A stretch of DNA of 64,000 nucleotides, taken from contig DASXMN010000011.1 in the NCBI GenBank assembly GCA_036495645.1, positions 62,940 to 126,939 on the forward strand. Direction: 5' to 3'. The notes under the pieces are model-generated. The model had not been told where the DNA came from, did not search any database, and worked only from the letters and a program-made list of their open reading frames with translations. Each line of letters starts with the position of its first letter. Within the stretch, counting starts at the first letter, position 1. Below are positions 23,317 to 57,730 of this stretch, piece after piece. The position numbers and the translations under genes are program-made. The stretch is from Candidatus Angelobacter sp. GTDB taxonomy: Bacteria > Acidobacteriota > Terriglobia > Terriglobales > Acidobacteriaceae.

Positions 23317-23352
23317 GGTTTCTCCCACGAAGTCCTCGACGCAAAAGGGTGT

Positions 23353-31539: not shown

Positions 31540-32718
31540 TTATGTCTCAACTCTTACTGAAATGTAATCTGCTATCGGAGGAATCGATGCCAGGCCATGC
31601 TCCAGAATCTGGACCCCTCCTCTGTTCTCGATTTCCGTAAATCCAGCAAACTTGTAAGTGACGTACATCATGCGGTTGCGGTCATTCGATACAAATTCAG
31701 AAAGCAGCCGGACCCTGGATTCCCGCGCCTTCCTCAGAATATGGTTCAACATGATTGTGCCCACACCCCGGTTCATCACCCGGCAGGACATGAGCAGCAG
31801 CTCGATCGTCCACACTTCAGGATCGCATTCCACCAGGGCAAGGCCAATTTTTCCGTAACTGCCAAACTTGTCAGTCAACTCAGACATGAGCAGGAGGTGG
31901 CGATCTGAGCACCGCAGTTTTTCCAGCTCTTCCCGGGAAAAGGTGCGTCCCGTGGTGTTGAGTTGATTGGTACGGTTGGTAAGTTCCTCCGCCCGGGCCA
32001 GGTCTTCGGCACGCGCAGGAGAGATCGTAAACACCATGCCGAGAGTAGCGAGGAATTCCTCCTGTGGTCCGGTGAATGTGTCTTCTGTCTGCTTACGTCG
32101 CATTTCGCCCAGATACATCTGGCGTCGCATGCGGGATTCTGCCGTGATGGTCTCAGGGTTTAGTTCCGGCATCCGCAGCAGATGGAGCAATTGGGTATGG
32201 TCCACACAAAGGACCTGCGGCAGTGCAGCCCGGACTTCCGCAAGCTCAAAGGGCTGGTCGTCAATAAAACAGATGCTATCCAGGCCGATGTTAAGACTTT
32301 CAGCGATCATCCGTATGGAAGCCGCCTTGGATCCCCAGTTAATCTGGGGATACAGGAAGTATTCTTCCAACTCCAGTTCACGCAACCGGGCCAGCGCCGA
32401 TTCTGGATGATTGCGGCTAGCGATGGAGTTCAGAATGCCGCGAGCATCAAGTACGTGGATGATTTCCAGAACACCATCGCGCAGATGTACCTCATCGCCT
32501 TCAAGCAAAGTCCCGTCCCACAGGGTATTATCCAGGTCCCAAACGACGCACTTGACCTTGGGCCGTTTCACGGGCGCCGCGGCGTCTCTTGAAATTTCGT
32601 TTTGGATTCCGAGTTCATTCACAAGTAACGTCTCACTTGGCCGTGACTGCGCTGTCCGCAACTTCCTGACAGGCACTCTGCGCAATCGTGATTTCCTGGA
32701 TCTCATTGCTGCCTTCAA
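31540..32718 (-). CDS. FkbH-like HAD-superfamily phosphatase/acyltransferase (glyceryl-ACP forming)
   Basis: The HAD motif I block is VVWDLDNTLWDG, followed by NSIASRN...GSKAASI...FIDDQPFE. There is a GNAT-like C-terminal half. The start is uncertain: ATG 32718 overlaps the upstream gene by 86 nt, whereas GTG 32622 lies 10 nt past its stop. Confidence 0.85.
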   Translation of the reverse strand: MKAAMRSRKSRLRRVPVRKLRTAQSRPSETLLVNELGIQNEISRDAAAPVKRPKVKCVVWDLDNTLWDGTLLEGDEVHLRDGVLEIIHVLDARGILNSIASRNHPESALARLRELELEEYFLYPQINWGSKAASIRMIAESLNIGLDSICFIDDQPFELAEVRAALPQVLCVDHTQLLHLLRMPELNPETITAESRMRRQMYLGEMRRKQTEDTFTGPQEEFLATLGMVFTISPARAEDLARAEELTNRTNQLNTTGRTFSREELEKLRCSDRHLLLMSELTDKFGSYGKIGLALVECDPEVWTIELLLMSCRVMNRGVGTIMLNHILRKARESRVRLLSEFVSNDRNRMMYVTYKFAGFTEIENRGGVQILEHGLASIPPIADYISVRVET

Positions 32719-33784
32719 TGATCTCCATTATCTTGGCGTCCCGATAAAAGCGTTCTGCCGGATATTCGCTGCTGCATCCGTTTGCGCCGTGTATTTGAAC
32801 AGCATCCCGGGCAATCTTCGCGGCGGTCGTGCAGGCGAAGTATTTCGCAATCGAAGTCTCAATCATTGAGGCGGGATCGCCGGCATCCTTGAGTTGTCCG
32901 GCGTTGTAGCACAGCAAACGGGCTGCTTTCACGCCCACCACCACGCGCGCGATGATACGCTGAACCAGCTGGTGGTCCCGCAAGAGAGCGCCGAACTGTT
33001 TTCTCCGGCCGGTGTATCGCAGGCACGCTTCCAAACATGCCTGGGCAATGCCCACGCAGCCCCAGGCCACACTGTAACGGCCGCAATCCAGGGCTGAGGA
33101 GGCAACATGAGAAAGGCCGAACCCGGGAGCGCCGATCATGTTTTGTTTCCGCACACGGCATTGTTCCAGGTGGAGTTCAGCCATCATGGAGGCGCGCGTG
33201 CCCAACATGCCATGCACAGGCGAAATCACCAGTCCGGGCGTATTTCGTTCCAATAAGAAGGCACACGGGGCCCGCTGGCTTCTGGCGAATACCAGAAACA
33301 AATCTGCAATCTGCGCAAAGGTAATCCATTTCTTATGTCCGCTGAGAAGAAAATCATCACCGCTGGCCACGGCCTCTGTCCTGATTTCCCGCGCATCACT
33401 TCCGGCTTCGGGCTCGGTGAGAGCAAATGCGGCTATTGCCTGCCCCTGCCCCAGCTTTTCCAGCCACTGGGCCTTTTGCGCTTCCGTTCCCCACCGCCAT
33501 ATTGCCAAAGCAGCCATGCTATGCACGGTCAACAAACTGCGGAGGGATGAACAGCCTCGCCCCAATTCCTCATTCAGCAGGCCAAATTCAACCATATTGA
33601 ACCCGGCGCCGCCACGATCAGCCGGCAGCACTGCTCCGAGATAGCCCTTAACAGCCAATTGCCGCACCATCTCCGCCGGCATGACTTCTGCCTGGTCCCA
33701 GGCATTGGCGTAGGGTACGATCTGCGCGTCCGCAAATTCCCGGAACGCAATCCGTAGCCGCTGCTGTTCAGGAGTAAGTTCCAT
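32633..33784 (-). CDS. acyl-CoA dehydrogenase-family enzyme (FkbI/ZmaE-like, acts on acyl-ACP)
   Basis: 383 aa with the ACAD fold (AFALTEPEAGSD, ...YRDAKIMEIIEGSNEIQ). It is embedded with the FkbH, ACP and 3-hydroxyacyl-CoA DH genes. Confidence 0.85.
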   Translation of the reverse strand: MELTPEQQRLRIAFREFADAQIVPYANAWDQAEVMPAEMVRQLAVKGYLGAVLPADRGGAGFNMVEFGLLNEELGRGCSSLRSLLTVHSMAALAIWRWGTEAQKAQWLEKLGQGQAIAAFALTEPEAGSDAREIRTEAVASGDDFLLSGHKKWITFAQIADLFLVFARSQRAPCAFLLERNTPGLVISPVHGMLGTRASMMAELHLEQCRVRKQNMIGAPGFGLSHVASSALDCGRYSVAWGCVGIAQACLEACLRYTGRRKQFGALLRDHQLVQRIIARVVVGVKAARLLCYNAGQLKDAGDPASMIETSIAKYFACTTAAKIARDAVQIHGANGCSSEYPAERFYRDAKIMEIIEGSNEIQEITIAQSACQEVADSAVTAK

Positions 33785-33796
33785 AAAGATCCAGCG

Positions 33797-34054
33797 TCAA
33801 TTCGCGCCGTTCTGCGAGTTCGAAGTCTTTCTCTCTATCAGCTCCGCCATGGCGTTAACGCTCTGAAAATTTTTTAGCTCCAGGTCCTCGTTGCCAATGG
33901 CGATCTTAAAGTTCTTTTCCAGGAACAATACGAGTTGCATGGCAAACATAGAGTTGACAAACCCAGCCGCAAAAATCTGATCGTCATCAGCAATCGTCCG
34001 GCCGCTGATATGTCGCCCCAGGAAAGCCCTCAGTTTTTCTTTCGATTGCTCCAT
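33797..34054 (-). CDS. discrete acyl carrier protein (FkbJ/ZmaD-like)
   Basis: 85 aa with a DltC-like carrier pattern, GFVNSMFAMQLVLFLEKNFKIAI...NFQSV. The phosphopantetheine Ser is in NSM. Confidence 0.75.
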   Translation of the reverse strand: MEQSKEKLRAFLGRHISGRTIADDDQIFAAGFVNSMFAMQLVLFLEKNFKIAIGNEDLELKNFQSVNAMAELIERKTSNSQNGAN

Positions 34055-34078
34055 GAATTTCTTTCCTTGCAGGATTGA

Positions 34079-35023
34079 CTAATCTTCGTAACTATAAAAT
34101 CCGCGTCCGTTCTTGCGGCCGTACAGGCCGGCATCCACCATCTGCCGGAGTAGCGGACAGGGGCGGAATTTGCTGTCTTTAAATTCGTCATACAGGACCT
34201 CAATAGAAAGCAGAATGGTATCCAACCCAATGAGGTCGGCGGTTTCCAGCGGACCCATCTTATGCTCGAAGCAGTTCTTGAAAATATCGTCCACTGCCTC
34301 GGGCGAGGCGACTTTTTCCTGCACCAGAAAAATCGCTTCGTTGATGGTCAGCATCAGTACCCGGTTGGAAACAAATCCGGGCGAATCATTCACCAGGATG
34401 GCCTTTTTGCCCATAAGACCGAGCAACCGGGTTGCTGTAGCAATGGTGTTGTCGCTGGTGTGATAGCCGCGAATCACCTCAACCGCCGCCTTCAGCGGTA
34501 CCGGATTCATGAAATGCATACCAAGTACACGTGCGGGCTGGCGCGTTAAGGCGCTGATCCGGGTGATAGGAATAGCAGAGGTGTTGGCGGCGAAAACGCA
34601 TTGCGGAGAACAAATCGCATCCAGCCGGCGATACACCTCCGTCTTGACCGTCAATTTTTCCGTCACATTTTCAACCACGAAATCGGCATCCCGCAGAACG
34701 TCATAGTCGGCAGAAACCTTGATGCGCCCCAGGATTTCTTCAGGACCACTGCCCTGATTCCTGTGAAATAAACGCTGGAAACGAACGTTGTTTCTGATCT
34801 GCCCAAGGGCGGACTCCAGAATGGGATCGGAGACATCTATCAGCAGGGTGCGCAACCCGCTCTGGGCCAACGCATGGGCCAGGCCCACACCCATGACTCC
34901 CGCTCCAATCACACCTATGGTTTCAAGGCGGGGAAGACCCAGGTTGTCCCCGGATTGCTTGTCGTCAATCACCGGCGGATGGGCGGACATCATTTGTCTC
35001 CATTCCGGACAGTGCGGACTCAT
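34079..35023 (-). CDS. 3-hydroxyacyl-CoA dehydrogenase-family enzyme (FkbK/ZmaG-like)
   Basis: The dinucleotide fold is IGVIGAGVMGVGLAHALA, and the protein is Hbd-like throughout. The start is uncertain: ATG 35023 overlaps the PKS gene by 59 nt, and alternatives are ATG 34993/34990 or GTG 34972. Confidence 0.85.
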   Translation of the reverse strand: MSPHCPEWRQMMSAHPPVIDDKQSGDNLGLPRLETIGVIGAGVMGVGLAHALAQSGLRTLLIDVSDPILESALGQIRNNVRFQRLFHRNQGSGPEEILGRIKVSADYDVLRDADFVVENVTEKLTVKTEVYRRLDAICSPQCVFAANTSAIPITRISALTRQPARVLGMHFMNPVPLKAAVEVIRGYHTSDNTIATATRLLGLMGKKAILVNDSPGFVSNRVLMLTINEAIFLVQEKVASPEAVDDIFKNCFEHKMGPLETADLIGLDTILLSIEVLYDEFKDSKFRPCPLLRQMVDAGLYGRKNGRGFYSYED

Positions 35024-38000: not shown

Positions 38001-38162
38001 CTCAGGGCTGATTCCGGCTTGTTCCAATTCTTGGTCAGAGAAAAACGACGTTGCTTCAATTCCCTGGTACAGGTTCTCCCAGAACCGCTGGAGATTGGGG
38101 GCCTGGGGAAATCGTCCCGCCATGCCGATGATTGCTATTCCGTCAAGTGCGTCCCTGGTCAT
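34965..38162 (-). CDS. type I polyketide synthase module: KS-AT-carrier (no KR/DH/ER)
   Basis: 1065 aa. The KS has DGIAIIGMAGRFP and the active-site block TACSTSL. The AT has GYSIGE (nt 36201-36218) and HAFHS. The carrier domain is PCP-like (YVAPRNFTEQKIVEIWEELLGV...FLRLGGNSLLAIRV). The start ATG overlaps the NRPS2 stop (ATGA). Confidence 0.95.
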   Translation of the reverse strand: MTRDALDGIAIIGMAGRFPQAPNLQRFWENLYQGIEATSFFSDQELEQAGISPELLRHPNYVKARGVLQDADLFDAGFFGYSPREAELTDPQVRLFLECAWEALESAGWEPEKFLGMIGVYAGMSFTSYIWQLAGEEMEGDSVSAFRLLMGGAEKDHLATTVSYRLNLRGPSFNIQTACSTSLAAVHAAARAVMTYECDMALAGGATVSVPQRCGYMYESGGIASADGHCRSFDADASGSVSGDGVGVVLLKRLEDAVADGDTVYAVIKGSAVNNDGRRKVGFTAPAVEGQAEVIAMALAAAEVECASIGYIEAHGSATTMGDPIEIAALNQAYGQAALKSASIAVGSVKSSLGHLNAAAGVAGLIKTILSLQHGYIPPSLNFRKANPKIPFERGPFRVNHTLSPWPESNKPRRAGVSSFGIGGTNVHVILEEAPKTKPSEPARSWQLIMISARSRQALERATDQLAAHLLQHPEQNFADVAFTLQQGRKAFEHRRMVVSRDASAAITLLQARTPSQVFTAVAPSGRRPVAFLLPGLGDQYLDMGRGLYESEPEFARHVDHCSEFLKPLLGVDLRKTMYPDSRVRQQNEVRTEERMNFRNLVQRARDESSPALQEIHRTLWAQPALFIIEYALAKLWMSWGVVPESMMGYSIGEYVAACLAGVISLEDSLRMLAVRAQRIEALAPGAMLAIAASEEEIRPLLTPEISMAGINGKSLCVVAGTLEAIDALQQRLLREGELVCRRLLATHAFHSPLMAPVAEELTRIARSIRLSPPKIPYISNVTGKPITDSEATDPTYWARHLTQPVQFAAGLQQMCSPSAPVFLEIGPGQMLTSLAEQYLGGRGLADRVALASLPHASDAQPDRAFILSTLGNLWLAGIEPDWIGVHRNERRNRVPLPTYPFERQSYWHTPSRRRKEKREAEPAKANAMAAPFTHEIVASNQGTQPEGNGMVNSRSYLSAEYVAPRNFTEQKIVEIWEELLGVHPIGIHDEFLRLGGNSLLAIRVAAELREAFQIEFPLGALLKSGTVSEIALFVEDALLTMIENMDESALSGMETNDVRPSAGD

Positions 38163-41100
38163 GGTGTCTGTATCCTTCTTAACTTTTGTACGGCGCTTTT
38201 TTGCCGCTCCGCCCGGTTCCGTGTTTCACGGGACTTCCCCTCAAAATTGTAACCCGCGTGAAGAAAGCGGACGAGAGAATCAATCGTGGGAAATTGAAAG
38301 AGATGCAGGAGTTCAATCTCAACCGAAAGTTCCGCGCGCAGTTTCTGATGGAGCTGGATCATGAGGAGCGAATGCCCGCCAAGATCAAAAAAGTTGTCAT
38401 GCACTCCCACCTGATCTACCCCGAGGGCGGTCTGCCATGCAGTGGCAATGGTTTGTTCCAATTCGGTTCGCGGGAGCACAAACTCCGTGGTTAATTGCTC
38501 CTGGCCCAGAACGGACAATGCGGCTCGATCCACCGCACCTCTGGCATTCTGCGGCAACTCCTGCAACGTAATGAAAGCGTCTGGAATCATGTAGGGAGGT
38601 AGCTTGTCATCAAGGAAGCTGCGCAGCTCATTCTGACCCAATCTCTTTCCGTTGTGGACCACGACATAAGCAATCAGTTCGCCATTGGGACGTACAACGA
38701 CCGCCGCTTCCTGCACGCTTTCGTAATTCGCCAGCACGGCTTCAATTTCTCCCAACTCGATCTCGACGCCCTCCATCTCTACCCGATCATCAAGTCTGCC
38801 CATAAGTTCGATAGTTCCATCCTTTCTGTATCGAGCACGCTCTCCGGTTCCACACATACGCCCACCCATTTCCGATGTAAACGGATTGGGAAGAAACTTC
38901 TCCGCCGTCAGTGACGGCCGCCCCATGTAACCACGGCCCGCGGCAGGTCCGGCAATCCACAGCTCCCCTGGAACGCCAATGGCAACCCGCTGCAGGTGCG
39001 GATCGAGGACGTAGATCTCTGCGTTGCCGCGTGGCCTGAATCTGGTTCGTTCTCCTTCTGCAAACGACGTGAGAAAGGCAGAGCTGGAGACCAGAAAAGA
39101 ACTTGACGTTAAACGCGACAAGATTTCCGGACAGCTATTCTCTTGGGCATGCCCATTTTGGTTCGCCGTATCAGCGGCCTCGCACTCCAATACAAGATCC
39201 ATCAGCGCGCTGTGCTCAAGCATCAGACCTTTGGCGTGTCCCTCCTGTGCGCCGGTATAGATGACACAAGCGAGGTTCCGGGGATTGATGTGAACATCAG
39301 GGTTTGTTGCGCTGTGCTGCCCTATCATCTCCCATTCCGAATCCAAACAAACCACGGGCGCATTGGTCTGCGGGAGACGCTTGCGCAGGCCCTCCAGGGT
39401 CAGCAACACGTCAACGTCAGAACTCTCAAGAATGACCCGCAGACGATCTTTAGGATTCAGGATGTCCAGAGGCAGATAGGCCCCACCGGCTTTTAGCACT
39501 CCCATGGTGGCCACCATCATCTCCTGCGAATGCGGCATGAAAATGCCGACCATTGATTCCGGCGCCACTCCCATGCGGGCGAGATAATGCCCAACTTGGT
39601 TGGCCCGGCGGTTCAGATCCCCATAGCTGAATTGCGTTTCGCCAAAAGTTGCAGCCGATTCTTGCGGCCGGTGTTCTGCTTGCGCATCGAAAATCTCGGT
39701 GACGTTGTTCTCCGGGCGAGAGACCAGGCCAACTTCGTTCCAACTGGACAAAACCCTCTCGTCCAACTCGCTCATCATGGGCAATGCCCAAACCGGTTGG
39801 TCGGCGTCTGCAACGATTCCCTCCAGCAGACGCTCATAACGTTGCAACATCTGGCGGATGGTCTCGGCCTCAAATAAGTCTCTGCTGTAGTTAAGGCCAA
39901 TCACTGCGCTCTGCCTGGCCTCTTCCACGCCCATAATAAGATCGAACTTAGAAGTACCAGGGTCCAGTGCGAACGGGACCAACTCCAACCCTCCTAATTC
40001 CGACTTACCCGCAACTGCCCGGCGCAACGTAAACGCCACTTGAAAAACAGGGGTACGGCTAACCTCACGGTCCGGCGCCAGATCTTCCACCAATTTTTCA
40101 AATGCCAGGTCCTGATGTTCGTACCCGCTCAGCACCGCCTCCCGTACTCGCCGCAGCACCTCGCGGAAGGTGGGTTCTCCGCCCAAGTTCGCGCGTATCA
40201 CCAGCGTGTTCAGAAAAAAACCAATCAACCCTTTCGTCTCTTTCCGCTTGCGATTGGCCACCACCGTGCCGACTCCAAAATCCTCCTGCCCGCTGTATCT
40301 CATCAACAGCACCTGGAACGCCGCCAGCAGGGTCATGAGCAAGCTGGCCTTTTCTGTCCTCCCGACCGCATTCAAACCTTCCAACAAATCGCTTCGCAAA
40401 ATTCCCTGCTCTGTCCCTCCGCGAAAACTCTCCCGCGCTGGCCGCACATAGTCCGTCGGCAACTCCAGCACTTGCGGCATCCCGGCTAACTGTCGTTTCC
40501 AGTACTCCATCTGCTGCTGGAACTTCCCTCCACGCAGCCCTTCTCTCTGCTCCAGCGCATACTCCCCATATTGCATTTCCAATTCCGGCAGCGGCGACTC
40601 TTCTCCTCTCCCATACGCCTCATACAATTTTCCCAACTCCTCCATGAATACGCCCAAAGACCAGTCATCACAGACAATGTGGTGCAGCGTCAGGCCCACA
40701 ACATGCTCCCTGTCTCCCGTCTGCACCAACACTCCTCGCAGCAAAGGCGCATGGCCTAAATCAAATGCTTTTCCAGCCTGTTCCGCCAGAACCTTCTTCG
40801 CCTGCTCCTCTCGCTCGCCTGCCTCTAGCGCCCGCAAGTCCACTACCGGCAATCGTAGGTCGAGCTGCTCCGCAAGAACTTTCTGGCTTGGTTCTTCGTG
40901 TTCGTCCGTCACAAAGCAGGTCCGCAGGACTTCATGTCGCCGCACCAGTTCCTGAAAACTCCGTTCCAGCCGAGGAACGTCCAAGTCGCCTTTGAGCTTC
41001 CAGGTCATAGGCACGTTGTAGAACGCATTGCCGGGATTGAACCGGTCCAGAAACCAAAGCTGCTCCTGCTGGTAGGAAAGCGGGAAGACAGAGAGTCTTG

Positions 41101-44100
41101 AGGCAGCAGCTCTCTGCGCCGGTTTGACGCCTTTGTCGGCTCCTGATTTCCTTCCCGGCAATTTCAAGCCAAGCTCTATCACCTCTGCCAGTTCCACAAG
41201 GGTTGGTGATTCAAATATCGCTCGTACCGGAACATCTATTCCAAACGCGTTCTCCATTCTGGTCGCCAATAATGTCGCAAGCAATGAGTGTCCGCCCAGG
41301 TCAAAGAAATTATCGTGTCGTCCAACGCGCGTGATTTCCAGCGCCTCGGCCCAAATCTGCGCCAATTGCTCCTCTACCTCAGTATGAGGAGCTTCGTAGT
41401 GCTCAGCTCCCAAATCCAGATCCTCAAACTTTTCCAGTGCCTCCCGGTCTACCTTCCCATTGCCCGAGAGCGGCAACTCGTGCAAGGTCACGATGAGGCT
41501 TGGAACCATGTACGCTGGAAGCTTGCCTTTCAGGTCTCGCCGCAACTCATCACGGTCCCGCTCTCCAACCACATACGCCACCAGCCGTTTACTTCTATTT
41601 GCGCCAGTCTTCGCCACCACTGCACAGCCCCGTATCCCGCTCTGCTGTTGCAGCATCGCCTCAATCTCTCCCAATTCCACGCGGTAACCGCGTATCTTCA
41701 CCTGGGAATCATTCCGTCCAATAAATTCGATCGTCCCATCCGGACGCCATCTCCCAAGGTCTCCTGACCTATACATCCGCGATCCCTCTTCATTGGCAAA
41801 CCGATTCTTAAGAAAACGCTTTTCTGTCAAATCTGGACGGTTCAAATACCCTCGCGCGACGCCCGCTCCCCCAATGTACAGTTCTCCTGCCACTCCCACC
41901 GGAACGAACTGCTCGTACTTATCCACTATGTAAATCTGCGCATTCGCAATTGGGCGCCCGATCGGCGGCAACAGGGGCCAACGGTTCCTTTCCATACTCA
42001 AATGGAATGCAGATGCAGCGTGGGTTTCTGTCGGACCATAATGGTTGTTCAACCGGCAGTGCTCCAGGCGCGTAAAGAGTCCTTTTATCTTGTCATTGAT
42101 GCGCAGTTGCTCCCCGGCTACGTTTATTTCCTGCAGTGCACAAGCGAAAGGCTCTTTGCCGATCTGGGCCACGCCATCGGCAAACATTTGCAGCCCAACA
42201 TAGGGAAGAAATAAGCGCTGGATGCCTTTCTCTATCACATAGCGCGTCATGTCTGTGGCGTTGCGTCTCTTCTCTTCATCGATCAGGACCAAAGTCCCGC
42301 CTGCGCATAAGGTGCTGAAGATCTCTTGAAATGAAACGTCAAACCCGAGTGCGGAAAACTGCAAGGTGCGCTGTGGTCCAGTCCACGCTGATTCATTCAT
42401 CTGCCACATAATCATGTTCATCGCGGCACGCGCCGGCATGGCAACGCCTTTGGGCAGACCAGTAGAACCCGACGTATAGATGACGTATGCCAGGTCCTTG
42501 GCGCTCAATCCAATGGTGGTGTGCTCCGGGTTCGAGTCGGGTTGGTTACTCCACGGCTCTGCGCCTCTCAGGTCAATCAACTTCAAGTCCTCTCTGACTT
42601 CCGTGAACAACCCGCGAAGATGGCTTTGGGTCAACAACACCCCCGGCCTGCTGTCCTCCAGCATGAATCGCAACCGCTCTTCCGGATATGCAGGATCCAT
42701 CGGTACGTATGCCCCTCCCGCCTTCATCACGGCAAGCAGCCCTACAATCATTTCCAGGCTGCGGTCCACGCATACGGCTACCAGCGTGTCCGGTTTCACC
42801 CCCAACGCTCGCAGATAATGGGCTAACCGGTTGGCCTGGCGATTCAAATCACCATATTTAAATTTCTGCCCTTCGTACTCCACCGCCACAACATTCGGTG
42901 TCTTCGCCGCATGCTCTTCGAACAATCTTCCGATGGTCTTGTCGCGCGGATAGTCTCTGGCGGTCTGATTCCATCTTTCCAGTTGCTCCCTCTCGGGCTC
43001 GGTCAACAAGGGCAGGTTCCACACCCGCTGCTCCGGATTTTCCACCACCGCCTTCAGTAACTGCTCGTAATGTCCCAGCATCCGCTGGATAGTTTCCGCT
43101 TCAAACAAGTCAGTGGCGTAGTTGATCGTAACCGCTGCGCCCTGCGTGGCCTCCTGCACACTTATGACGAGATCGAACTTAGACATCCCAATATCTATCT
43201 CGAAGCCGCTCAACCCCAATGCCCCGAATTCCAATGGGTCGGGCTCGCCCAGCGTCGTAAACAGCACTTGAAATATGGGGGTACGGCTGACATCACGGTC
43301 GGGCGCCAATTCTTCCACCAATTTTTCAAATGACACATCCTGATGCGCGTACCCGCCCAGCGCCGCCTTACGCACTTGCCGTAGAACTTCACGGAAGCTG
43401 GGCCCGCTGCTCAAATTTGCGCGTATCACCAGCGTGTTCAGGAAGAAACCGATGATTTGTTCCATCTCTATCCGCTTACGGTTTGCTACTACTGTTCCAA
43501 TTCCAAAATCCTCCTGCCCGCTATACCTCATCAGCAGCACCTGGCACACCGCCAGCAGCGTCATGAATAAGCTGGCCCGCTCTCCCTTTCCCACGGCATT
43601 TACGCCTTCCAGCAGGTCGCTGCTTAGGCTTCGCTGCTCAATCCCTCCACGGAAACTCTGCCGCGCCGGCCGCACATGGTCCGTCGGCAGCTCAAGCACT
43701 TGTGGCATTCCTTCCAACTGCCCTTTCCAATACTCCATCTGCTGCTCTAACCCTCCTCCACGCAACCCTTCCCTCTGCTCCAGCGCATACTCTCCATATT
43801 GCATTCCCAATTCCGGCAGCGGCGACTCTTCTCCTCTTCCATACGCCTCATACAATTTTCCTAACTCACTCATCAATATTCTCAACGACCAGTCGTCACA
43901 AATAATGTGGTGCAGCGTCAGCCCCAAAACGTGCTCCCTTTCTCCCATCCGCACCAATAGTCCCCGCAACAACGGCGCTTGGGTTAAATCAAAGGCCTTG
44001 CTACCCTCTTCCGCTATAATCTTCTTCGCCTGCTCCTCTCGCTCACTTGCCTCTAACTGCCGCAAATCCATTACCGGCAACCGCACATCGACTTTCTCCC

Positions 44101-47100
44101 CAACAACTTTCTGCTTCAGGTCTTGATGTTCATCCATCACAAAGCAGGTCCGCAGGATTTCATGTCGCCGTACCACCTCCTGCAGACTCCGCTCCAATGT
44201 GGCGACGTCTAGATCGCCTTCGAGCCTCCAGGCCAAGGGCACGTTATAGAAGTCACTACTCGGCTCGAACCTGTCCAGAAACCAAAGCTGCTCCTGTTGA
44301 TAGGAAAGCGGAAAGAGAGAAGGTCTTGAACTGGAATTTGCCTGCTTCCGTGCTACGCCTTTATCACTTCGTGACTGCAAACTGCGCTCTATTACCTCTG
44401 CCAGGTCCGCAATCGTCGGGGACTCGAATATCGTGTGCACCTGAACATCTATTCCAAATGTGTCTCGAAACCTGGATACCATTGCGACCGCCAGCAGCGA
44501 GTGTCCGCCCAAATCAAAGAAATTATCATGCCGCCCGACTCGAGTAACTTCCAGCACCGCTGCCCAAATCTCCGCCAGTTCTTCCTCTATCGACGTTCGA
44601 GGGGCTTCGTAGTGCTGTGCTGAATCGTCCAAACCCAAATTTTCCAGCTTTTCCAACGCCTGCCGGTCTACCTTCCCATTGCTCGTGAGCGGCAGTTCCT
44701 GCAAACCCACTATGACACTCGGAACCATGTATGCCGGAAGCTTGCCTTTCAGATCGCGCCTTAAGCCCTCATAGTCCCCAACCACATATGCAATCAGCCT
44801 CTTACTTCCATTCGCACCAGACTTCGCCACCACCGCGCAGCCCCGTATCCCACTCTGCTGTTGCAGGATCGCCTCAATCTCTCCTAACTCAATTCGGAAA
44901 CCGCGGACCTTGACCTGAAGATCATTCCGTCCCACAAACTCGATTGTCCCGTCTCTCCGCCACCGCACCAGATCTCCCGTCCGGTACAATCGCCCTCCAC
45001 CCTCCTCGCTATACCGGTCCGGCACAAACCGCTCCGCCGTTAAATCCGGTCGCCGCAAATACCCCCGCGCTACACTCGCTCCCGCTACATACGCTTCTCC
45101 CACCACTCCTATCGGCACTACATTCATCGCTCGATCCAGCACATACATCCGCCGGTCTCCTATCGGCTTCCCGATGGGCAGTGAAATCACACTCTCCGGC
45201 AATTCCCCCGGCACCACATAGCAACTGCTGAATACCGTGCATTCCGATGGCCCATACCCGTTCACCACCCGCATTCCCGGCATCTCCGCCAGAGCCCTCT
45301 TGATGTGCGTCACCGACGCCGTCTCGCCCCCCGTCAGCAGATACTTCACTCCTTGCAGGCACTCCACATCGCTTTCCACAATCGAGTTCAACAGGGCCGC
45401 CGTCAACCACAGCGTATTCACTCCCCGCCCCTGCACGTACTTCCTGATCTCTTCTGCGCTCAAGATTCGCTGCTGCGCCAGTACGCTCCGTCCTCCCGTC
45501 AACAACGCCCCCCACAGCTCCAGTGTGAATGCGTCCCAGCTCACCGAGGAATGCTGCAGCAGCACCGTTTCTTCATCGAAACGCACATAATCAATTCCAA
45601 AAATGAATCCGGCAATACTGCGATGCGGAATCTCGCTCCCCTTCGGTTCTCCCGTCGATCCCGATGTGTAGATCACGTACGCAAGATTTTCAGCGTCCAC
45701 TCCCGTTTCCGCCCGCTCCAGGCTCGTCTCCGGCAAGCTCCTGAACGCATCCTCATTCGCTACATCGATAACCTGGATGCCTTCATGGATTCCACCTGCC
45801 AAATCCAGCAAACCCGGCCAATCACTTCTCACTAGCAGCGCCACCGGAGTGCTGTCCTCCAAAATGAATTGCAATCGTTCCCTGGGGTACGACAGATCCA
45901 GCGGCACATACGCTCCACCCGCCTTCAACACTGCCACCATCCCCACCACCATCTCCAATCCGCGCTCCACACCAATTGCTACGCGCGTATCCGGCCTCAC
46001 TCCAACGGTTCGCAGGTAATGCGCCAGCCGGTTGGCTCTGCGGTTCAGCTCCGCATACGTCAACTCCTGCCCTTGGTGCTCCACCGCCACGGCGTTCCCC
46101 ATTCTGGCCGCACATTCTTCGAACAACTCATGCACGCACTTCTGTCCGCCTTGCGTCTCCCCCAGGTTCCACTCCACTAAGAGCTGCCGTGTTTCATTCT
46201 TGGCTAACATTGCCAGGTCCCAAATTCGCTGCTCCGGATTCTCCACCACCGCCTTTAGCAGCCGCTCGTAATGGCCTAGCATCCACTCAATGGTCACTGC
46301 TTCAAACAGGTCAGTACTGTAGTTGAGCGCAAGCTTTGGCTCATTGGATTCTTCAACAATCATGGTGAAGTCAAATTTGGAATGTCTAATATCTGCTCCG
46401 AACTCGCTCAATTCCAATCCCGCAAATTTCGAGTCCGTGGGTCTGCGCACCGTAAACATTACTTGGATTAACGGGTTACGGCTGATGTCGCGGTCCGGAG
46501 CCAGTTCTTCCACCAGCTTTTCAAATGGCAGGTCCTGATGATCGTACCCGCTCAGCGCGGACTGCCGGACCTGCCGCAGTACTTCGCGGAAAGTCGGATC
46601 GCCTTCCAGATTCGCGCGTATCACCAGCGTGTTCAGGAAGAAGCCAATCAATTCGTGCGTGTTTGTCCGGCTGCGGTTAGCTATGGACGTGCCAACTCCA
46701 AAATCTTTCTGCCCGCTGTACCTCATCAGCAGCACCTGGTACGCCGCCAGCAACGTCATGAATAAGCTGGCCCCCTCAGCTCTCCCCAGTGCGCTCAAAC
46801 TTTCCAGCAAACCGCTTCCCAAACTTCGATTTTGTATTCCTCCGCGGAAACTCTGATGCGCCTGCCGCATATGGTCCGTCGGCAACTCCAGCACTTGTGG
46901 CATTCCGTCCAACTGTTTTTTCCAGTATTCCATCTGCTGCTGAAACTTCTCTCCACGCAGCCCTTCCCTCTGCTCCAGCGCATACTCCCCGTATTGCATT
47001 TTCAATTCCGGCAGCGGCGACTCTTCTCCTCTTCCATACGCCTCATACAACTTCTCTAACTCTTCCATCAATACTTCCAACGACCACTCATCACAGATAC

Positions 47101-47686
47101 TGTGGTGCAGCGTCAGCGTCAAAACATGCTCCGCTTCTTCCATGCGCACCAACACTCCCCGGAATAAGGGTGCCCGGCTTAAATCAAATGCCTTGCCGGC
47201 CTCCTCCGCTACAACCTTCTTCGCCTGCTCCTCTCGCTCGCGCGGCTCTAACCGCCGCAAATCCATCGCCGGCAACCGCACATCGAGTTTCTCCCCAACA
47301 ACCTTCTGCCTCGGTTTTTCCTGTTCGCCCATGACAAAGCAGGTCCGGAGGATTTCATGCCGGCGCACCACTTCCTGCAGGCTCCGTTCCAGCCGGGGAA
47401 CATCCAGGTCGCCTTTGAGCTTCAAAGTCATAGGCACGTTATAGAAGTCGCTACTGGGCTGGAACTGGTCGAGAAACCAAAGCTGCTCCTGCTGGCAGGA
47501 AAGCGGGAAAAGGGAAGGTCTTGTCCTTGAATCTTCTGATGAAGAAACGGGCAGTTGCTCCTGAGTCGCATCCCGCGGTGTCTGAGCGCTCGGAGCGCCA
47601 AGGCCCTCTTTCTCCAACAAACGCCGCAGCAGTTCCCGTTCTTCTTCCAACCGGTCTTTTTTCGGTACAACTCTTCCCGAAGCCAT
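38159..47686 (-). CDS. non-ribosomal peptide synthetase NRPS2: C-A-T-C-A-T-C-A*-T (third A domain decayed)
   Basis: 3175 aa. It has three closely related C domains (HHSICDEWS, HHIICDDWS, HHIVCDDWS). A1 and A2 have complete core motifs. The third A lacks the A4-A5 region and has mutated A3, A7, A8 and A10 motifs. Its three T domains are all FFDLGGHSLL. Confidence 0.95.
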   Translation of the reverse strand: MASGRVVPKKDRLEEERELLRRLLEKEGLGAPSAQTPRDATQEQLPVSSSEDSRTRPSLFPLSCQQEQLWFLDQFQPSSDFYNVPMTLKLKGDLDVPRLERSLQEVVRRHEILRTCFVMGEQEKPRQKVVGEKLDVRLPAMDLRRLEPREREEQAKKVVAEEAGKAFDLSRAPLFRGVLVRMEEAEHVLTLTLHHSICDEWSLEVLMEELEKLYEAYGRGEESPLPELKMQYGEYALEQREGLRGEKFQQQMEYWKKQLDGMPQVLELPTDHMRQAHQSFRGGIQNRSLGSGLLESLSALGRAEGASLFMTLLAAYQVLLMRYSGQKDFGVGTSIANRSRTNTHELIGFFLNTLVIRANLEGDPTFREVLRQVRQSALSGYDHQDLPFEKLVEELAPDRDISRNPLIQVMFTVRRPTDSKFAGLELSEFGADIRHSKFDFTMIVEESNEPKLALNYSTDLFEAVTIEWMLGHYERLLKAVVENPEQRIWDLAMLAKNETRQLLVEWNLGETQGGQKCVHELFEECAARMGNAVAVEHQGQELTYAELNRRANRLAHYLRTVGVRPDTRVAIGVERGLEMVVGMVAVLKAGGAYVPLDLSYPRERLQFILEDSTPVALLVRSDWPGLLDLAGGIHEGIQVIDVANEDAFRSLPETSLERAETGVDAENLAYVIYTSGSTGEPKGSEIPHRSIAGFIFGIDYVRFDEETVLLQHSSVSWDAFTLELWGALLTGGRSVLAQQRILSAEEIRKYVQGRGVNTLWLTAALLNSIVESDVECLQGVKYLLTGGETASVTHIKRALAEMPGMRVVNGYGPSECTVFSSCYVVPGELPESVISLPIGKPIGDRRMYVLDRAMNVVPIGVVGEAYVAGASVARGYLRRPDLTAERFVPDRYSEEGGGRLYRTGDLVRWRRDGTIEFVGRNDLQVKVRGFRIELGEIEAILQQQSGIRGCAVVAKSGANGSKRLIAYVVGDYEGLRRDLKGKLPAYMVPSVIVGLQELPLTSNGKVDRQALEKLENLGLDDSAQHYEAPRTSIEEELAEIWAAVLEVTRVGRHDNFFDLGGHSLLAVAMVSRFRDTFGIDVQVHTIFESPTIADLAEVIERSLQSRSDKGVARKQANSSSRPSLFPLSYQQEQLWFLDRFEPSSDFYNVPLAWRLEGDLDVATLERSLQEVVRRHEILRTCFVMDEHQDLKQKVVGEKVDVRLPVMDLRQLEASEREEQAKKIIAEEGSKAFDLTQAPLLRGLLVRMGEREHVLGLTLHHIICDDWSLRILMSELGKLYEAYGRGEESPLPELGMQYGEYALEQREGLRGGGLEQQMEYWKGQLEGMPQVLELPTDHVRPARQSFRGGIEQRSLSSDLLEGVNAVGKGERASLFMTLLAVCQVLLMRYSGQEDFGIGTVVANRKRIEMEQIIGFFLNTLVIRANLSSGPSFREVLRQVRKAALGGYAHQDVSFEKLVEELAPDRDVSRTPIFQVLFTTLGEPDPLEFGALGLSGFEIDIGMSKFDLVISVQEATQGAAVTINYATDLFEAETIQRMLGHYEQLLKAVVENPEQRVWNLPLLTEPEREQLERWNQTARDYPRDKTIGRLFEEHAAKTPNVVAVEYEGQKFKYGDLNRQANRLAHYLRALGVKPDTLVAVCVDRSLEMIVGLLAVMKAGGAYVPMDPAYPEERLRFMLEDSRPGVLLTQSHLRGLFTEVREDLKLIDLRGAEPWSNQPDSNPEHTTIGLSAKDLAYVIYTSGSTGLPKGVAMPARAAMNMIMWQMNESAWTGPQRTLQFSALGFDVSFQEIFSTLCAGGTLVLIDEEKRRNATDMTRYVIEKGIQRLFLPYVGLQMFADGVAQIGKEPFACALQEINVAGEQLRINDKIKGLFTRLEHCRLNNHYGPTETHAASAFHLSMERNRWPLLPPIGRPIANAQIYIVDKYEQFVPVGVAGELYIGGAGVARGYLNRPDLTEKRFLKNRFANEEGSRMYRSGDLGRWRPDGTIEFIGRNDSQVKIRGYRVELGEIEAMLQQQSGIRGCAVVAKTGANRSKRLVAYVVGERDRDELRRDLKGKLPAYMVPSLIVTLHELPLSGNGKVDREALEKFEDLDLGAEHYEAPHTEVEEQLAQIWAEALEITRVGRHDNFFDLGGHSLLATLLATRMENAFGIDVPVRAIFESPTLVELAEVIELGLKLPGRKSGADKGVKPAQRAAASRLSVFPLSYQQEQLWFLDRFNPGNAFYNVPMTWKLKGDLDVPRLERSFQELVRRHEVLRTCFVTDEHEEPSQKVLAEQLDLRLPVVDLRALEAGEREEQAKKVLAEQAGKAFDLGHAPLLRGVLVQTGDREHVVGLTLHHIVCDDWSLGVFMEELGKLYEAYGRGEESPLPELEMQYGEYALEQREGLRGGKFQQQMEYWKRQLAGMPQVLELPTDYVRPARESFRGGTEQGILRSDLLEGLNAVGRTEKASLLMTLLAAFQVLLMRYSGQEDFGVGTVVANRKRKETKGLIGFFLNTLVIRANLGGEPTFREVLRRVREAVLSGYEHQDLAFEKLVEDLAPDREVSRTPVFQVAFTLRRAVAGKSELGGLELVPFALDPGTSKFDLIMGVEEARQSAVIGLNYSRDLFEAETIRQMLQRYERLLEGIVADADQPVWALPMMSELDERVLSSWNEVGLVSRPENNVTEIFDAQAEHRPQESAATFGETQFSYGDLNRRANQVGHYLARMGVAPESMVGIFMPHSQEMMVATMGVLKAGGAYLPLDILNPKDRLRVILESSDVDVLLTLEGLRKRLPQTNAPVVCLDSEWEMIGQHSATNPDVHINPRNLACVIYTGAQEGHAKGLMLEHSALMDLVLECEAADTANQNGHAQENSCPEILSRLTSSSFLVSSSAFLTSFAEGERTRFRPRGNAEIYVLDPHLQRVAIGVPGELWIAGPAAGRGYMGRPSLTAEKFLPNPFTSEMGGRMCGTGERARYRKDGTIELMGRLDDRVEMEGVEIELGEIEAVLANYESVQEAAVVVRPNGELIAYVVVHNGKRLGQNELRSFLDDKLPPYMIPDAFITLQELPQNARGAVDRAALSVLGQEQLTTEFVLPRTELEQTIATAWQTALGVDQVGVHDNFFDLGGHSLLMIQLHQKLRAELSVEIELLHLFQFPTIDSLVRFLHAGYNFEGKSRETRNRAERQKSAVQKLRRIQTP
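38486..39703 (-). other. decayed adenylation domain (A*) of NRPS2 module 3
   Basis: This is aa ~2662-3067, about 405 aa against ~520 in the other A domains. A3 reads VIYTGAQEGHAKG instead of YTSGSTGxPKG. Only ~70 aa separate A3 from IYVLD (nt 38969-39271 is the collapsed core), so the FDxS and NxYGPTE motifs are gone. A7 is CGTGE, A8 is GRLDDRVEMEGVEIELGEIE and A10 is RGAVDR. Confidence 0.8.
44868..46237. repeat. A-core cassette copy in NRPS2 module 1 (partner at 53080-54449)
   Basis: The nucleotide sequence aligns by eye at a constant offset of 8212 nt with few mismatches. The antisense track ORFs 44944-45231 and 45237-45590 are near copies of 53156-53443 and 53449-53802. The copy spans from the C-A linker (EQRIWDLAML) to the A8 motif (VRGFRIELGEIEA). 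Confidence 0.85.
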
Positions 47687-47690
47687 CTCT

Positions 47691-50600
47691 TTAAAAACCC
47701 TTTCTAGAAGTCTTTTCCATCGTCAAACTTTCTTCTCTATGTTCTAGCTTCTCTGCCAGCAAGCGCACAGTGGGATAGGAGAAGAAGTCGACGAGCGCTA
47801 TATCCTTCTGCAGTTTCTCCCGCAGGTTGAAACGTACACGCGCCACCAGCAGCGAATATCCACCAAGATCGAAAAAGTTGTCATCGAGGCCAGCTCGTTC
47901 CACCCCCAGCGCCTCCTGCCATACACTGGCCACCATTTGCTCCAAAGGGGTCCGAGGCGCGACGTACGGATTTCTCGCTCTCCGTTCCGCCTTTCCGGTC
48001 TGGGTTACTCCCCGAATCTTTAACTGCTGTATCTCGCTCGCGCTCAAGATCTCCAGATCGCAGATAGGTTTCTTCAGATCCTGCATCGCCGCTGCCAGCA
48101 ATCGTTCGTAATATCTTGCCATTTGCTCTATGCGCCAGCGATCGAACAAATCCCGGTTGTAGATCCAGACGATGTCCAGTTGTCCATTGCGTTCAATGGC
48201 ATGGACCTCCAAATCAAAGCGCACGGTCCATGCTTCTGTTCCCAACTCCTCAACTTCCAGTCCTTTCAGTTCCTGAGTTCCCGAGGAAGCATTCTGCAGG
48301 GCAAAGACCACCTGGAAGATGGGCGTCCGATTTAAGCTGCGGCGCAATGGCAGGACCTCTACCAGCCGCTCAAACGGAATATGTTGATGCCGGTACGTCT
48401 CCAAGGCCAAATCGCGCACTTCCTCAAGGAGTTCTCCGAAACTGGCATTTGGGTTCACTTCCACTCGCATGACTAGCATGTTCGCGAAGAAACCGATCAG
48501 GCCTTCCAGACGCTCGTCCTGGCGGTTAGCAATGGGCGACCCAACCACGATGTCATCCTGCCCGCTATAGCGATGCATCTGAACAGCAAAAGCCGTGAGC
48601 AAAGTCATATATAAGGTGGAGCGGCCACATCGTTTCAATGCAGCTACTTTTTCCTGAGGCAAAGTTATTCCGCAGGCATCGGCAGCGTAAGTCTGTACCG
48701 GAGGACGTGGCCTGTCCTTGGGAATCTCCAGCTCTTCCGGTATTTCTGCCAGATGTTCTTGCCAGAACCGAAGGTCCTCATCTAGTCCCTCATTTGCATC
48801 CTGCATCTGCCACAAAGCAAAATCCGTGAATTGAAGCAGCAGGTCCGGCAATGGATTCTCGCGGCCCTGCGAGTACGCCTCATATAATTCCCTGAACTCC
48901 CGCATAAATATACCTAGCGACCATCCATCCGATACGATGTGGTGGAATGTTTGCAGGAGAATATGATTTTCTTCCGCCAGCTTAAGCAGCTTGAGTCGTA
49001 GCACAGGGCCATGCGCCAGATCGAATGGTTCACGCCATTCTTGATTCACGGACTCCATTACATGCCTCTGCTGCTCCGCTTCGGAAAGCCGGCTGAGGTC
49101 CTTGATTGGGATTTCAAAAGTAAGGTCGGGCGCAATGATCTGCACCGGCTCTCCCCGCTCTTCTGCGAAGTGTGTACGCAAGCTCTCATGCCGGTCCACA
49201 ATCGTCTGGACGGCGCGGCGTAGCGCATCCACATCCAACCTGCCGCGCAACCGCAGGGCCTCGGGCATGTTGTATTCCGCGCTGCTGCCTTGCAGTTCAT
49301 TGATGAACCATAACCGCCGCTGGGAATACGACAATGGCGCGTGCTCAGCTTTGGGATGGCGTCGCAGCGAGATCTGGGCTTTCCGGGCTCCCCCATCGTC
49401 TTGAAGTTGAGACGCTAATTTAGCGATCGTGGGTGATTCAAACACGCTGCGTAGCGCTACATCTATTCCCAAAGTAGCGCGGATTCGGCTTATCAGCCGG
49501 GTAGCCAGCAACGAGTGTCCGCCTATGGCAAAGAAATCATCATGCACACCCACCCGGTCCCGATTCAACACTTCCGCAAACAGACCACACAATATTTCTT
49601 CCTCGCCATTGCGTGGGCCTGTGTAGCCCCTTCTATCATCCCATTCTCTTTTCGGGGCGGGCAGTGCTTTGCGATCGACCTTTCCGTTTGGCGTCAACGG
49701 CAATTGTTCCATCTCCACAAAAGCAGATGGAACCATGTATTCGGGCAACCGCTCTTTCAGGAACTCCCTGAAAGCCTCCGCCCTCACCGCACCATTCTTG
49801 ATTACGTATGCCACTACTCGTTTTTCCGCGGGTTGATCTTCCCGGACTATTACGGCGCACGCCCTGACTCCCTCATGTGCCTGCAAAACCGCTTCAATCT
49901 CTCCCAGTTCGATACGGTAGCCCCGCACCTTCACCTGCTGATCCAATCGGCCGATGAATTCCAGATTTCCCTTCCGCCCCCATTTCACCTGGTCCCCTGT
50001 TCGATAGATCCGCTCTCCTCCGCGCTCAGAGAAGGGATTGGGAATGAACTTTTCCGCTGTCAAGTCCGGCTGGTTTAGATATCCGCGCGCGACTCCCTGG
50101 CCTCCCAAAAACAATTCGCCGGTCATGCCTATAGGTACGGGTTGATATTCCCTATCCAGAACGTAAGCTTGCGTATTGCTAATGGGCTTTCCTATCGGCA
50201 CTCTTTCATTTGTCTCGCCTTTTTCCAAACATGCATATGTGGAGTAGGTCGTATCCTCCGATGGTCCATACAGATTGAAAACCCGCTTTACCTTTAATTC
50301 TTCGTAGAGCTGTTCCACTGTGTTCGGCGGCAGAGCTTCTCCAGCCAGGTTCACAGTTTGAATCGAGTCGGGTACACCCTTGATTCGCAGCAACTCTGCC
50401 ATCGCTGAGGGTACCGTGTTGAGCAACTTCACTCCGGACTCTTGCTCCATCTCGGCCAGGTTCAACGCATCGCGTACCACGATTGTCTTTCCACCCCAAC
50501 TGAGAGGAGCAAAAATTTCAAATACCGAGAGGTCAAAACAAATGGATGTGGACGCCAGAACTCCGCCCAATTCTTCTGCCGAGAAGACCTCCCGCGCCCA

Positions 50601-57455: not shown

Positions 57456-57730
57456 GACCGCTGCTAAAATTTTTGGCAAGAGTTTACCTCGGCTTCCTGC
57501 GAATTTACCTGGAGTGTGGCTCCCAGGGACGGAAAAGACAAGATTAGCCCCGGGCCTCAAGCAGTAGAGGGAATCGGGATAAATACGTGAGATTCCGGCG
57601 TTCCAATGAATTTCCCGAATACCAGCTTTCGTAAACCATAACCCGGCAGCACCGCATTTCCAAACATAAAATAAGTTCACATTTGCGTCTACATTCCGCC
57701 TTGATGCCTGACAATAGCAGGAAGGACTTT

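Follow-up and report, generated by a model that had tools for sequence, protein, structure and literature searches.

A degenerate adenylation domain kept in frame between condensation and carrier domains of a Candidatus Angelobacter peptide synthetase

Degenerate adenylation domains in known assembly lines

Dead adenylation (A) domains that persist in frame are rare but documented in nonribosomal peptide synthetases (NRPSs). In KtzH, SidD/NPS6, GdnB and systems of the albicidin type, such a domain is kept between a condensation (C) domain and a thiolation (T) domain, the carrier. Here, we describe a further member of this class, termed A*, in the third module of NRPS2, a megasynthase encoded in 64,000 nucleotides (nt) of DNA from Candidatus Angelobacter sp. 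(contig DASXMN010000011.1; this whole stretch is called the window). A* lies directly upstream of a polyketide synthase (PKS). It is set apart from the known cases by an internal collapse at the substrate pocket with both flanks kept, by its position in the last NRPS module before a ketosynthase (KS), by the lack of a clustered partner A domain, and by a coexisting bare C-T module.

In the kutzneride synthetase KtzH, a truncated, non-functional A* stands between C and T and is reported to be needed for KtzN-mediated loading (as cited in PMC10587159). Module 3 of NRPS2 is similar in that it is bacterial and has a dead A* between C and an intact T, which would be loaded by another A domain. However, KtzN is encoded in the kutzneride cluster, whereas no stand-alone A domain was found in or beside our window, and the module here feeds a PKS KS. 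Further details of the KtzH A* and KtzN were reportedly given by Strieker et al. in 2009. In fungi, A1 of SidD loads T1 and also T2, past a truncated degenerate A domain (dA), and A3 of SidC loads T4 and T5 (PMC10192304); in SidD and NPS6, the dA belongs to module 2, and the family also includes C-T modules that have no A domain (PMC10192304; PMC2644324). As in SidD and SidC, a degenerate A domain is kept in frame and A-less C-T modules occur; in the fungal systems, an upstream integrated A domain loads the T domain of the defective module. In contrast, the fungal dA lacks ~290 amino acids (aa) from its N-terminus, whereas A* keeps both ends around an internal collapse and belongs to a bacterial, non-iterative PKS hybrid.

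The A* of GdnB keeps only Asub and has no Stachelhaus code; its A*T unit is needed for folding and stability, and C13 condenses free putrescine (PMC10587159). Retention with a structural role would be common to GdnB and NRPS2, but the GdnB module is a terminal releasing one, whereas the module here would serve an internal NRPS-to-PKS hand-off and keeps the N-terminal block of the A core. In albicidin and cystobactamid biosynthesis, inactive A domains are complemented by stand-alone A-T proteins (PMC8949500). There, too, an in-line degenerate A domain is retained and the residue comes from another A domain. Unlike A*, however, these domains are inactive through weakly conserved core motifs, with no subdomain loss reported, and the partner A-T is clustered and carries an extra tailoring domain. 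Finally, the thalassospiramide lines Ttm and Ttc contain A-less modules with no stand-alone A domain nearby, and inter-module loading, carried out by integrated A domains, has been demonstrated (bioRxiv 10.1101/560987). They share with our locus a bacterial hybrid NRPS-PKS architecture in which modules lack a working A domain; in Ttm, the A domains are absent, as in the C-T module of NRPS1 here, and no relics are retained.

Anatomy, conservation and predicted fold of A*

NRPS2 is an unbroken open reading frame (ORF) of 3175 aa on the minus strand (window positions 38159..47686), with the domain order C-A-T-C-A-T-C-A*-T according to Pfam and a motif scan (Table 1). Its third A-like region, A*, corresponds to window 38486-39703 (aa 2662-3067). 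The flanking C and T domains are intact: HHIVCDDWS in C3 and FFDLGGHSLL in T3, both named in the original prediction made from this DNA, were recovered by the motif scan, and C3 shares 69-71% identity with C1 and C2 of NRPS2. Besides A*, the window holds eight A domains, not seven as first counted.

The lesion in A* lies between its two conserved ends. In a MAFFT alignment with seven of the eight other window A domains (the methyltransferase-interrupted A1 of NRPS4 was left out), A* shows large gaps between A3 and A6. A phmmer search against the Protein Data Bank splits it into query 22-193, matching LgrA 208-372, and query 244-530, matching LgrA 509-794, with ~50 unalignable aa standing for 136 aa of LgrA (E about 1e-158 for the protein). 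Its homology to the ANL superfamily is also seen in Pfam as a split fourth AMP-binding stretch (PF00501), and the best AMP-binding_C stretch of the protein (PF13193, aa 2980-3050) falls within A*. The A1-A3 and A5/6-A10 blocks were then captured in separate hidden Markov models (HMMs), with which we scanned the window and 81 NRPS loci (1.38 Mb). The spacer between the blocks is 68 aa in A* versus a median of 161 aa (5th-95th percentile 149-201) among 190 A domains, of which only A* and its eight orthologues have spacers of 67-75 aa. The net loss in A* is ~93 aa. The collapse reported in the original prediction is therefore real, but its size (~120 aa) was overestimated, and A4 and A5 are not simply gone: a degenerate A4-like HAQENSCPE and an A5-like SFAEGER can still be force-aligned in the remnant, so these motifs were destroyed rather than cleanly excised.

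All nine pocket positions fall inside the collapsed stretch, and the lost stretch corresponds to the flavodoxin-like, pocket-bearing subdomain. In EndA, this subdomain comprises 139 aa as a discrete unit with 9/10 pocket residues (PMC8616955), and it can be exchanged between A domains with the remaining fold undisturbed (PMC8616955; PMC11355689). Its discrete and swappable nature would explain why the rest of A* can still fold. Among the A domains scanned, the same region also carries the opposite modification: eight A domains in other phyla (L012, L033, L036, L039, L041, L055, L060 and L064) have ~525-555 aa between the A1-A3 and A5-A10 blocks, and in the one inspected (L041), a luciferase-like monooxygenase-type insert lies between A4 and A5.

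The remaining catalytic motifs of A* are altered as well. A3 reads YTGAQEGHAKG (aa 2810), versus the P-loop consensus (T/S)SG(S/T)TGxPKG, and A7 reads CGTGE (aa 2945), versus Y-x-(T/S)-G-D. A8 is GRLDDRVEMEGVEIE (aa 2963), with the basic residues expected there replaced, and in A10, QNARGAVDR (aa 3046), the catalytic Lys is replaced. The motif scan thus bore out all four mutated strings listed earlier (A8 as RVEMEGVEIE and A10 as RGAVDR). Among the nine orthologues, the five residues at the centre of the A* P-loop vary, whereas A2 keeps SGSTG in all; the acidic residue of A7 also differs, and the A10 Lys position is A, G, E or K. In A2, all A motifs are intact and invariant. Conversely, the fold-defining strings of A* are kept (GELWI.G, GRGY, LTAEKF, PNPF, DGTIEL.GR.DD, ELGEIE and YMIP) and match generic A-domain conservation, while family-specific conserved strings are few (QNGHA, RLTSSSFL and GTGERAR). 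This is the conservation pattern of a putative pseudo-enzyme, in which catalytic residues drift and fold residues are conserved. With the pocket subdomain missing and the P-loop, A7 Asp and A10 Lys non-canonical, A* cannot plausibly adenylate a substrate.

The same relic occurs well beyond this contig, being preserved in frame in at least ten related genomes. An independent Logan contig from the source soil-metagenome run is identical over 38100-40100, and a ~94%-similar strain from another sample has the same length within one codon. A search of 5.8 billion proteins with A*-T returned ~29 clusters at 63-88% identity, which cover the full query where the contig allows; below 63%, the next matches (<50% identity) were ordinary A domains, and no close relative with an intact A domain at the A* position was found in this search. 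All 15 family members that were aligned, from these ~29 clusters, share the collapse, down to 63% identity. A scan of one genome per species gave eight orthologous loci (L001-L008; seven Candidatus Angelobacter metagenome-assembled genomes (MAGs) and one Terriglobia MAG) that are 74-83% identical. In the nine sequences, the relic spans 405-410 codons with no stops or frameshifts.

The ratio of nonsynonymous to synonymous substitution rates (dN/dS, or omega) was estimated by the Nei-Gojobori method on a codon alignment (36 pairs from nine sequences). Values were 0.31 for the N block of A*, 0.25 for the remnant and 0.17 for the C block, versus 0.11-0.14 for the intact A2, 0.13 for C3 and 0.085 for T3. 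A codon bootstrap on four non-overlapping pairs (dS ~0.8) gave an omega of 0.226 for A* (95% confidence interval (CI) 0.195-0.258), 0.129 for A2 (0.111-0.149) and 0.088 for T3; for aa 2819-2912, the stretch surrounding the remnant, omega was 0.27 (CI 0.20-0.37). Within the module, constraint is strongest on T3, whose serine does not vary among the aligned homologues. Based on the omega of 0.226 and the absence of stops at a dS of ~0.8, A* is under purifying selection, relaxed approximately two-fold compared with a working A domain. The proposal that the preserved frame reflects selection rather than a sequencing error is thus upheld by the orthologous genomes, the aligned homologues, the omega value and the Logan contig. 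At the level of sequence, these data show that selection has acted for a non-catalytic role of A*.

Position-wise comparison shows that the family-conserved positions of A* are mostly those of the generic A-domain fold. A new conserved surface patch was therefore not supported, and the few short family-specific strings speak at best weakly for an exapted interface. An origin of A* as a recent copy of a cluster A domain was also rejected: identities to the other A domains are 33-40% in the N block and 41-50% in the C block, below those of the intact domains to each other, and no donor was identified. Only soil metagenome DNA runs contain the region; no RNA runs covering it were found.

In the AlphaFold2 (AF2) model of A*-T, based on a 74-sequence alignment (mean predicted local distance difference test (pLDDT) 85, predicted template modelling (pTM) score 0.75), the flanking blocks, Asub and T are confident (N block pLDDT 84-98, C block ~88-95), and the remnant is the sole poor stretch (44-75). 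The remnant is the lowest-confidence part of A* in the model of C3-A*-T3 as well. By Foldseek, the A*-T model is closest to the thiolation-state structures of LgrA (5es8) and EntF (5t3d), with a best query-normalised template modelling score (TMq) of ~0.66, and for the C3-A*-T3 model, the top matches are structures of whole modules (EntF 5t3d, TMq 0.60; Txo1 C-A, target-normalised score (TMt) 0.60). The N-lobe of C3 is unmodelled (residues 1-179, pLDDT <50) because homologues in the alignment are partial, so the C-A* interface can be judged only from the global TMq. The predictions are consistent with canonical module geometry for C3-A*-T3, for which they are weak evidence.

Loading of T3 and competing explanations

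If A* is dead, T3 needs another source of its residue, and it is not the only such carrier. NRPS1 ends in a C-T module without an A domain, which the original prediction had missed; this C-T end is kept upstream of the NRPS2 orthologues in L007 and L008. Next to eight working A domains, the assembly line thus has two orphan carriers, T3 and that of the NRPS1 C-T module. In the synthesis of putrescine-terminated nonribosomal peptides, C-T didomains are found at the terminus (PMC10587159), and by analogy, the NRPS1 C-T may release the chain in an amine-dependent way or be a second carrier loaded in trans. Outside the four NRPS genes, no A-domain motifs were found in the 64 kb by Pfam on other ORFs of >=150 aa or by a six-frame motif scan, nor was a stand-alone A domain found in the ~5 kb of contig beyond the window end, which encodes radical-SAM and AMMECR1 proteins. 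We also attempted to name the loader by domain similarity, but the T- and C-domain identity matrices were not discriminating: T3 is 28-46% identical to the other T domains of the cluster (T2 38%; best, NRPS1 T3 46%).

We propose that A* is a catalytically dead domain without its pocket subdomain that is kept as a folded structural element of C3-A*-T3. The retained parts would be the N-terminal portion of the A core (packed against the C domain in canonical modules), the beta-barrel part, and the mobile Asub that tethers the carrier. T3 would be a working carrier aminoacylated by a different A domain; that T3 is charged in this way is, in our view, a sound inference. C3 would join the upstream peptide to the T3-borne residue, and T3 would pass the chain to the translationally coupled KS-AT-T (AT, acyltransferase) for extension with a hydroxymalonyl-acyl carrier protein (ACP) unit from the FkbH cassette. 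This hand-off to the KS is suggested by gene adjacency, by the 4-nt overlap of the NRPS2 stop and PKS start codons, and by the C-terminal tail after T3, which is kept in all family members and predicted by AF2 to be helical. The most likely loader would be one of the integrated A domains of this line, first of all the upstream neighbour NRPS2 A2, through inter-modular loading of the SidD/SidC and thalassospiramide type; the bare C-T module of NRPS1 would be served likewise. An integrated loader is favored because no stand-alone A domain lies in or just beyond the window and inter-module loading has precedents. For the combination of a dead scaffold A*, T3 loaded by an integrated A domain and transfer to the KS, we consider the chances of being right about even.

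Several points weigh against this proposal. The search for a loader covered the window and ~5 kb past its high end, and an unlinked A-T could be encoded elsewhere in the genome. No sequence feature singles out the loader, T3 being closest to the other orphan carrier at only 46%. The PKS has almost no N-terminal docking region before its KS, which starts ~8 residues past the start codon. AF2 tends to reproduce canonical module geometry, so the structural matches are weak support. Moreover, the bare C-T of NRPS1 indicates that an A-less module does not strictly need a scaffold, and the retention of A* may have a more specific cause. Since the bare C-T coexists in NRPS1, a plain scaffold fails to account for a relic of ~410 aa, which leaves room for partner docking or T3-to-KS positioning. 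One speculative version, which we regard as unlikely, is that A* was exapted as a recruitment or positioning platform holding T3 for a foreign A domain, a CmlA-like beta-hydroxylase or a KS without a docking domain, analogous to the X domain in glycopeptide NRPSs or the interface domain in siderophore NRPSs. If true, it would explain why ~410 aa are retained here beside a bare C-T in NRPS1, and A* would be a natural A domain that stays folded after excision of the flavodoxin-like subdomain.

The serious rival to an integrated loader is an unlinked, KtzN-like one: A* would be dead, and a dedicated stand-alone A or A-T protein from elsewhere in the genome would load T3, with A* as its docking site, as in KtzN/KtzH or albicidin and cystobactamid. 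We rate it as credible, though on balance improbable. It accounts for the retention of A* despite the viability of a bare C-T in NRPS1, and a CmlA-like beta-hydroxylase is encoded in the window (Table 1); such enzymes often work with split modules. The kutzneride A* is reported to be critical for KtzN-mediated loading (cited in PMC10587159), and trans-complementation by stand-alone A-T proteins is known in albicidin, cystobactamid, ramoplanin and enduracidin (PMC8949500). However, the searches above returned no A-domain motifs outside the megasynthases, and A* has few family-specific conserved surface positions, most being generic to the fold. Rather doubtful is a glidonin-like arrangement, in which C3 would condense the peptide with a free amine, or need no aminoacyl-T3, and A*-T3 would only stabilize the protein. 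GdnB module 13 (C-A*-T-TE; TE, thioesterase), with its free-putrescine condensation and its A*T13 needed for folding and stability, and the terminal C-T didomains of putrescine-terminated peptides are its precedents (PMC10587159), and the megasynthases here lack a TE, with NRPS1 ending in C-T. Against it stand the constraint on T3 (omega 0.088) with its invariant serine, the coupling of NRPS2 to a KS whose Cys is intact and which needs an upstream acyl donor, and the conserved tail and PKS synteny in seven loci, which point to T3-to-KS transfer.

The original prediction had also suggested that T3 is charged with an FkbH-derived glyceryl group. FkbH (TIGR01686) is indeed encoded ~5.4 kb downstream, and in-line carrier loading by FkbH domains is known in other pathways, but priming of T3 with a glyceryl or hydroxymalonyl unit seems very improbable to us. 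The four genes of the cassette form the canonical hydroxymalonyl-ACP set, which includes a discrete 85-aa ACP; the only AT of the cluster lies in the next module and would consume the extender, and the second-best solved relative of this AT is the ZmaA AT; and C3 closely resembles C1 and C2, which accept ordinary aminoacyl-T. Because the cassette has its own ACP and the adjacent PKS holds the only AT, FkbH most simply supplies the PKS extender unit rather than T3. That A* still adenylates, or has gained other catalysis, through a remodelled pocket is hardly conceivable: the remnant region is under purifying selection (omega 0.27) and the strings QNGHA, RLTSSSFL and GTGERAR are family-specific, but replacements affect the P-loop, the A7 Asp, the A8 Lys/Arg and the A10 Lys and vary between orthologues, all nine pocket positions fall in the collapsed stretch, and the remnant is the least confident part of both models. 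To the ideas that the region is misassembled, or that the module was inactivated recently as the cluster decays, we attach practically no weight. The source is a metagenome and the deletion removes essential residues; however, the identical independent contig, the in-frame collapse in eight species-level genomes and all aligned homologues, an omega of 0.23 with a CI far below 1, and the conserved neighbourhood in the loci examined rule it out.

The gene cluster and its significance

The cluster, all on the minus strand, comprises NRPS1, NRPS2, the PKS, a 3-hydroxyacyl-CoA-dehydrogenase-like gene, an 85-aa ACP, an acyl-CoA-dehydrogenase-like gene, FkbH, NRPS3, NRPS4 and a MacB-type exporter (Table 1). 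The PKS gene directly follows the A*-T protein in L001-L003, L005, L007, L008 and L082. The order C-A*-T, KS-AT-T, 3HCDH, ACP, acyl-CoA dehydrogenase, FkbH, NRPS is the same in 7/7 loci examined downstream, namely six orthologous loci and the most divergent homologue, P0019 (63% identity). In Candidatus Angelobacter, an uncultured genus, most clusters are singletons and few are common to more than three species (PMC9723581). By this standard, the conservation of the present cluster in at least nine Candidatus Angelobacter-type genomes is unusual.

Table 1. Coordinates of the module 3 domains of NRPS2 and of neighbouring features in the window
Feature	Window position	Strand	Basis or remark
C3 condensation domain, NRPS2 module 3, aa ~2200-2645	39752..41089	-	Pfam Condensation; HHIVCDDWS active-site motif at aa 2335
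A* N-terminal block (A1-A3 of A core), aa 2646-2820	39227..39751	-	Half-domain HMM 153.7 bits; phmmer LgrA 208-372
A* collapsed remnant, aa 2821-2889, 69 aa	39020..39226	-	Replaces ~160-aa stretch, flavodoxin-like pocket subdomain (A4-A5, Stachelhaus positions 235-331)
A* C-terminal block, aa 2890-3058: A-core beta-barrel (A6 GELWIAG..GRGY) and Asub	38513..39019	-	Half-domain HMM 173.3 bits
T3 carrier domain, aa 3070-3140, FFDLGGHSLL with phosphopantetheine serine	38267..38479	-	Pfam PP-binding; motif (aa 3099)
Helical tail after T3, aa 3141-3175, and stop codon	38159..38266	-	ORF coordinates; tail conserved family-wide; helix predicted
NRPS2 module 2 (C2-A2-T2)	41090..44310	-	A2 motifs all intact
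PKS module KS-AT-T, 1065 aa	34965..38162	-	Pfam ketoacyl-synt, Acyl_transf_1, PP-binding; KS Cys intact (TACSTS)
Hydroxymalonyl-ACP cassette, four genes	31540..35023	-	Pfam; TIGR01686
3-hydroxyacyl-CoA-dehydrogenase-like	34079-35023	-	3HCDH domain
Discrete 85-aa ACP	33797-34054	-	PP-binding 24.1 bits vs cut-off 20.8
Acyl-CoA-dehydrogenase-like	32633-33784	-	Acyl-CoA_dh domain
FkbH	31540-32718	-	TIGR01686 270.6 bits vs cut-off 146.65
NRPS1	47691-55856	-	C-A-T-C-A-T-C-T (Pfam: 3 C, 2 A, 3 T)
NRPS1 terminal C-T module without A, aa ~2170-2721, T = FFDLGGYSLL	47691..49349	-	Pfam and sequence
NRPS3	23353-31323	-	C-A-T-E-C-A-T
NRPS4	16897-23328	-	A(MT)-T-C-A-T
Heme-oxygenase-like diiron enzyme, upstream of NRPS1	59116-59814	-	Haem_oxygenas_2, weak CADD/BesC similarity
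Zn-dependent dehydrogenase, upstream of NRPS1	56379-57680	-	
MFS transporter, upstream of NRPS1	57683-58957	+	
CmlA-type diiron beta-hydroxylase	60237-61877	+	CmlA_N 308 bits

The AT of the PKS, the only one in the cluster by Pfam, carries the motifs GYSIGE and HAFH (PKS aa 620-760). We take HAFH to indicate a malonyl type, although a hydroxymalonyl-ACP cassette adjoins. The zwittermicin pathway, to which ZmaA belongs, uses ACP-linked extenders. The AT of ZmaA (4qbu) ranks only second among the solved relatives (E = 5e-59), almost level with the first, so the solved relatives do not point to one AT specificity. No O-methyltransferase gene of the FkbG type was found in or beside the cassette, and the unit would therefore be hydroxymalonyl-ACP.

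The four genes upstream of NRPS1 are probably tailoring or precursor genes. Beyond them, a 648-aa radical-SAM gene (62252-64000, plus strand) runs off the window end, which keeps it out of the ORF list, and is followed by a 972-aa AMMECR1-domain protein, the region continuing in L081 (7873-12749); a 309-aa minus-strand ORF at 62183-63112 is probably spurious. In L007 and L008, the first A domain of the NRPS2 orthologue (aa ~1000-1450) is interrupted by a methyltransferase (LEIGCGIG) that the window copy lacks, and N-methylation of the product at that residue is presumably limited to some of the species. Over at least 300 nt (44870-45169 vs 53082-53381), the DNA of the first A domain of NRPS1 is 95% identical to that of NRPS2, with 91% aa identity in the N block, whereas the flanking C domains are only 53% identical, which points to recent gene conversion between the modules. 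The Asub of NRPS2 A1 is 71% similar to that of A2. Stachelhaus-type codes read by hand from motif offsets, which were not used as evidence, are tentatively Val-like (NRPS1 A1, NRPS2 A1 and NRPS3 A1), Pro-like (NRPS2 A2) and Ala-like (NRPS1 A2).

No thioesterase, reductase or terminal C domain fused to the megasynthases was found in the NRPS genes and the PKS (window 16897-55856). A single thioesterase, stand-alone and type-II-like, is encoded on the opposite strand (11937-12710). NRPS4 begins with A(MT)-T and looks like a loading module. NRPS3 and NRPS4 share a near-identical C-terminal tail (FAQKLRSIS..RPV.E.EKIA...), and the N-terminal heads of NRPS1 and NRPS2 are alike (..KKD..EEERELL..LL.KEGLG). 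The termini suggest that the enzymes act in the order NRPS4->NRPS2->PKS->NRPS3->NRPS1, or as two parallel lines, and probably not in the order of their genes. Having two orphan carriers but no TE domain, the line would be non-linear and its product not colinear with the genes.

Annotation by colinearity, of the antiSMASH type, would call the A* module active with an unpredictable substrate, or the cluster broken, and both would misguide the prediction of the product structure. As the collapse spans just the swappable subdomain and the flanks are under selection, A* is a natural experiment on which parts of an A domain matter for architecture apart from catalysis, and it is of use where modules without an A domain or loaded in trans, or junctions from NRPS to PKS, are to be engineered.

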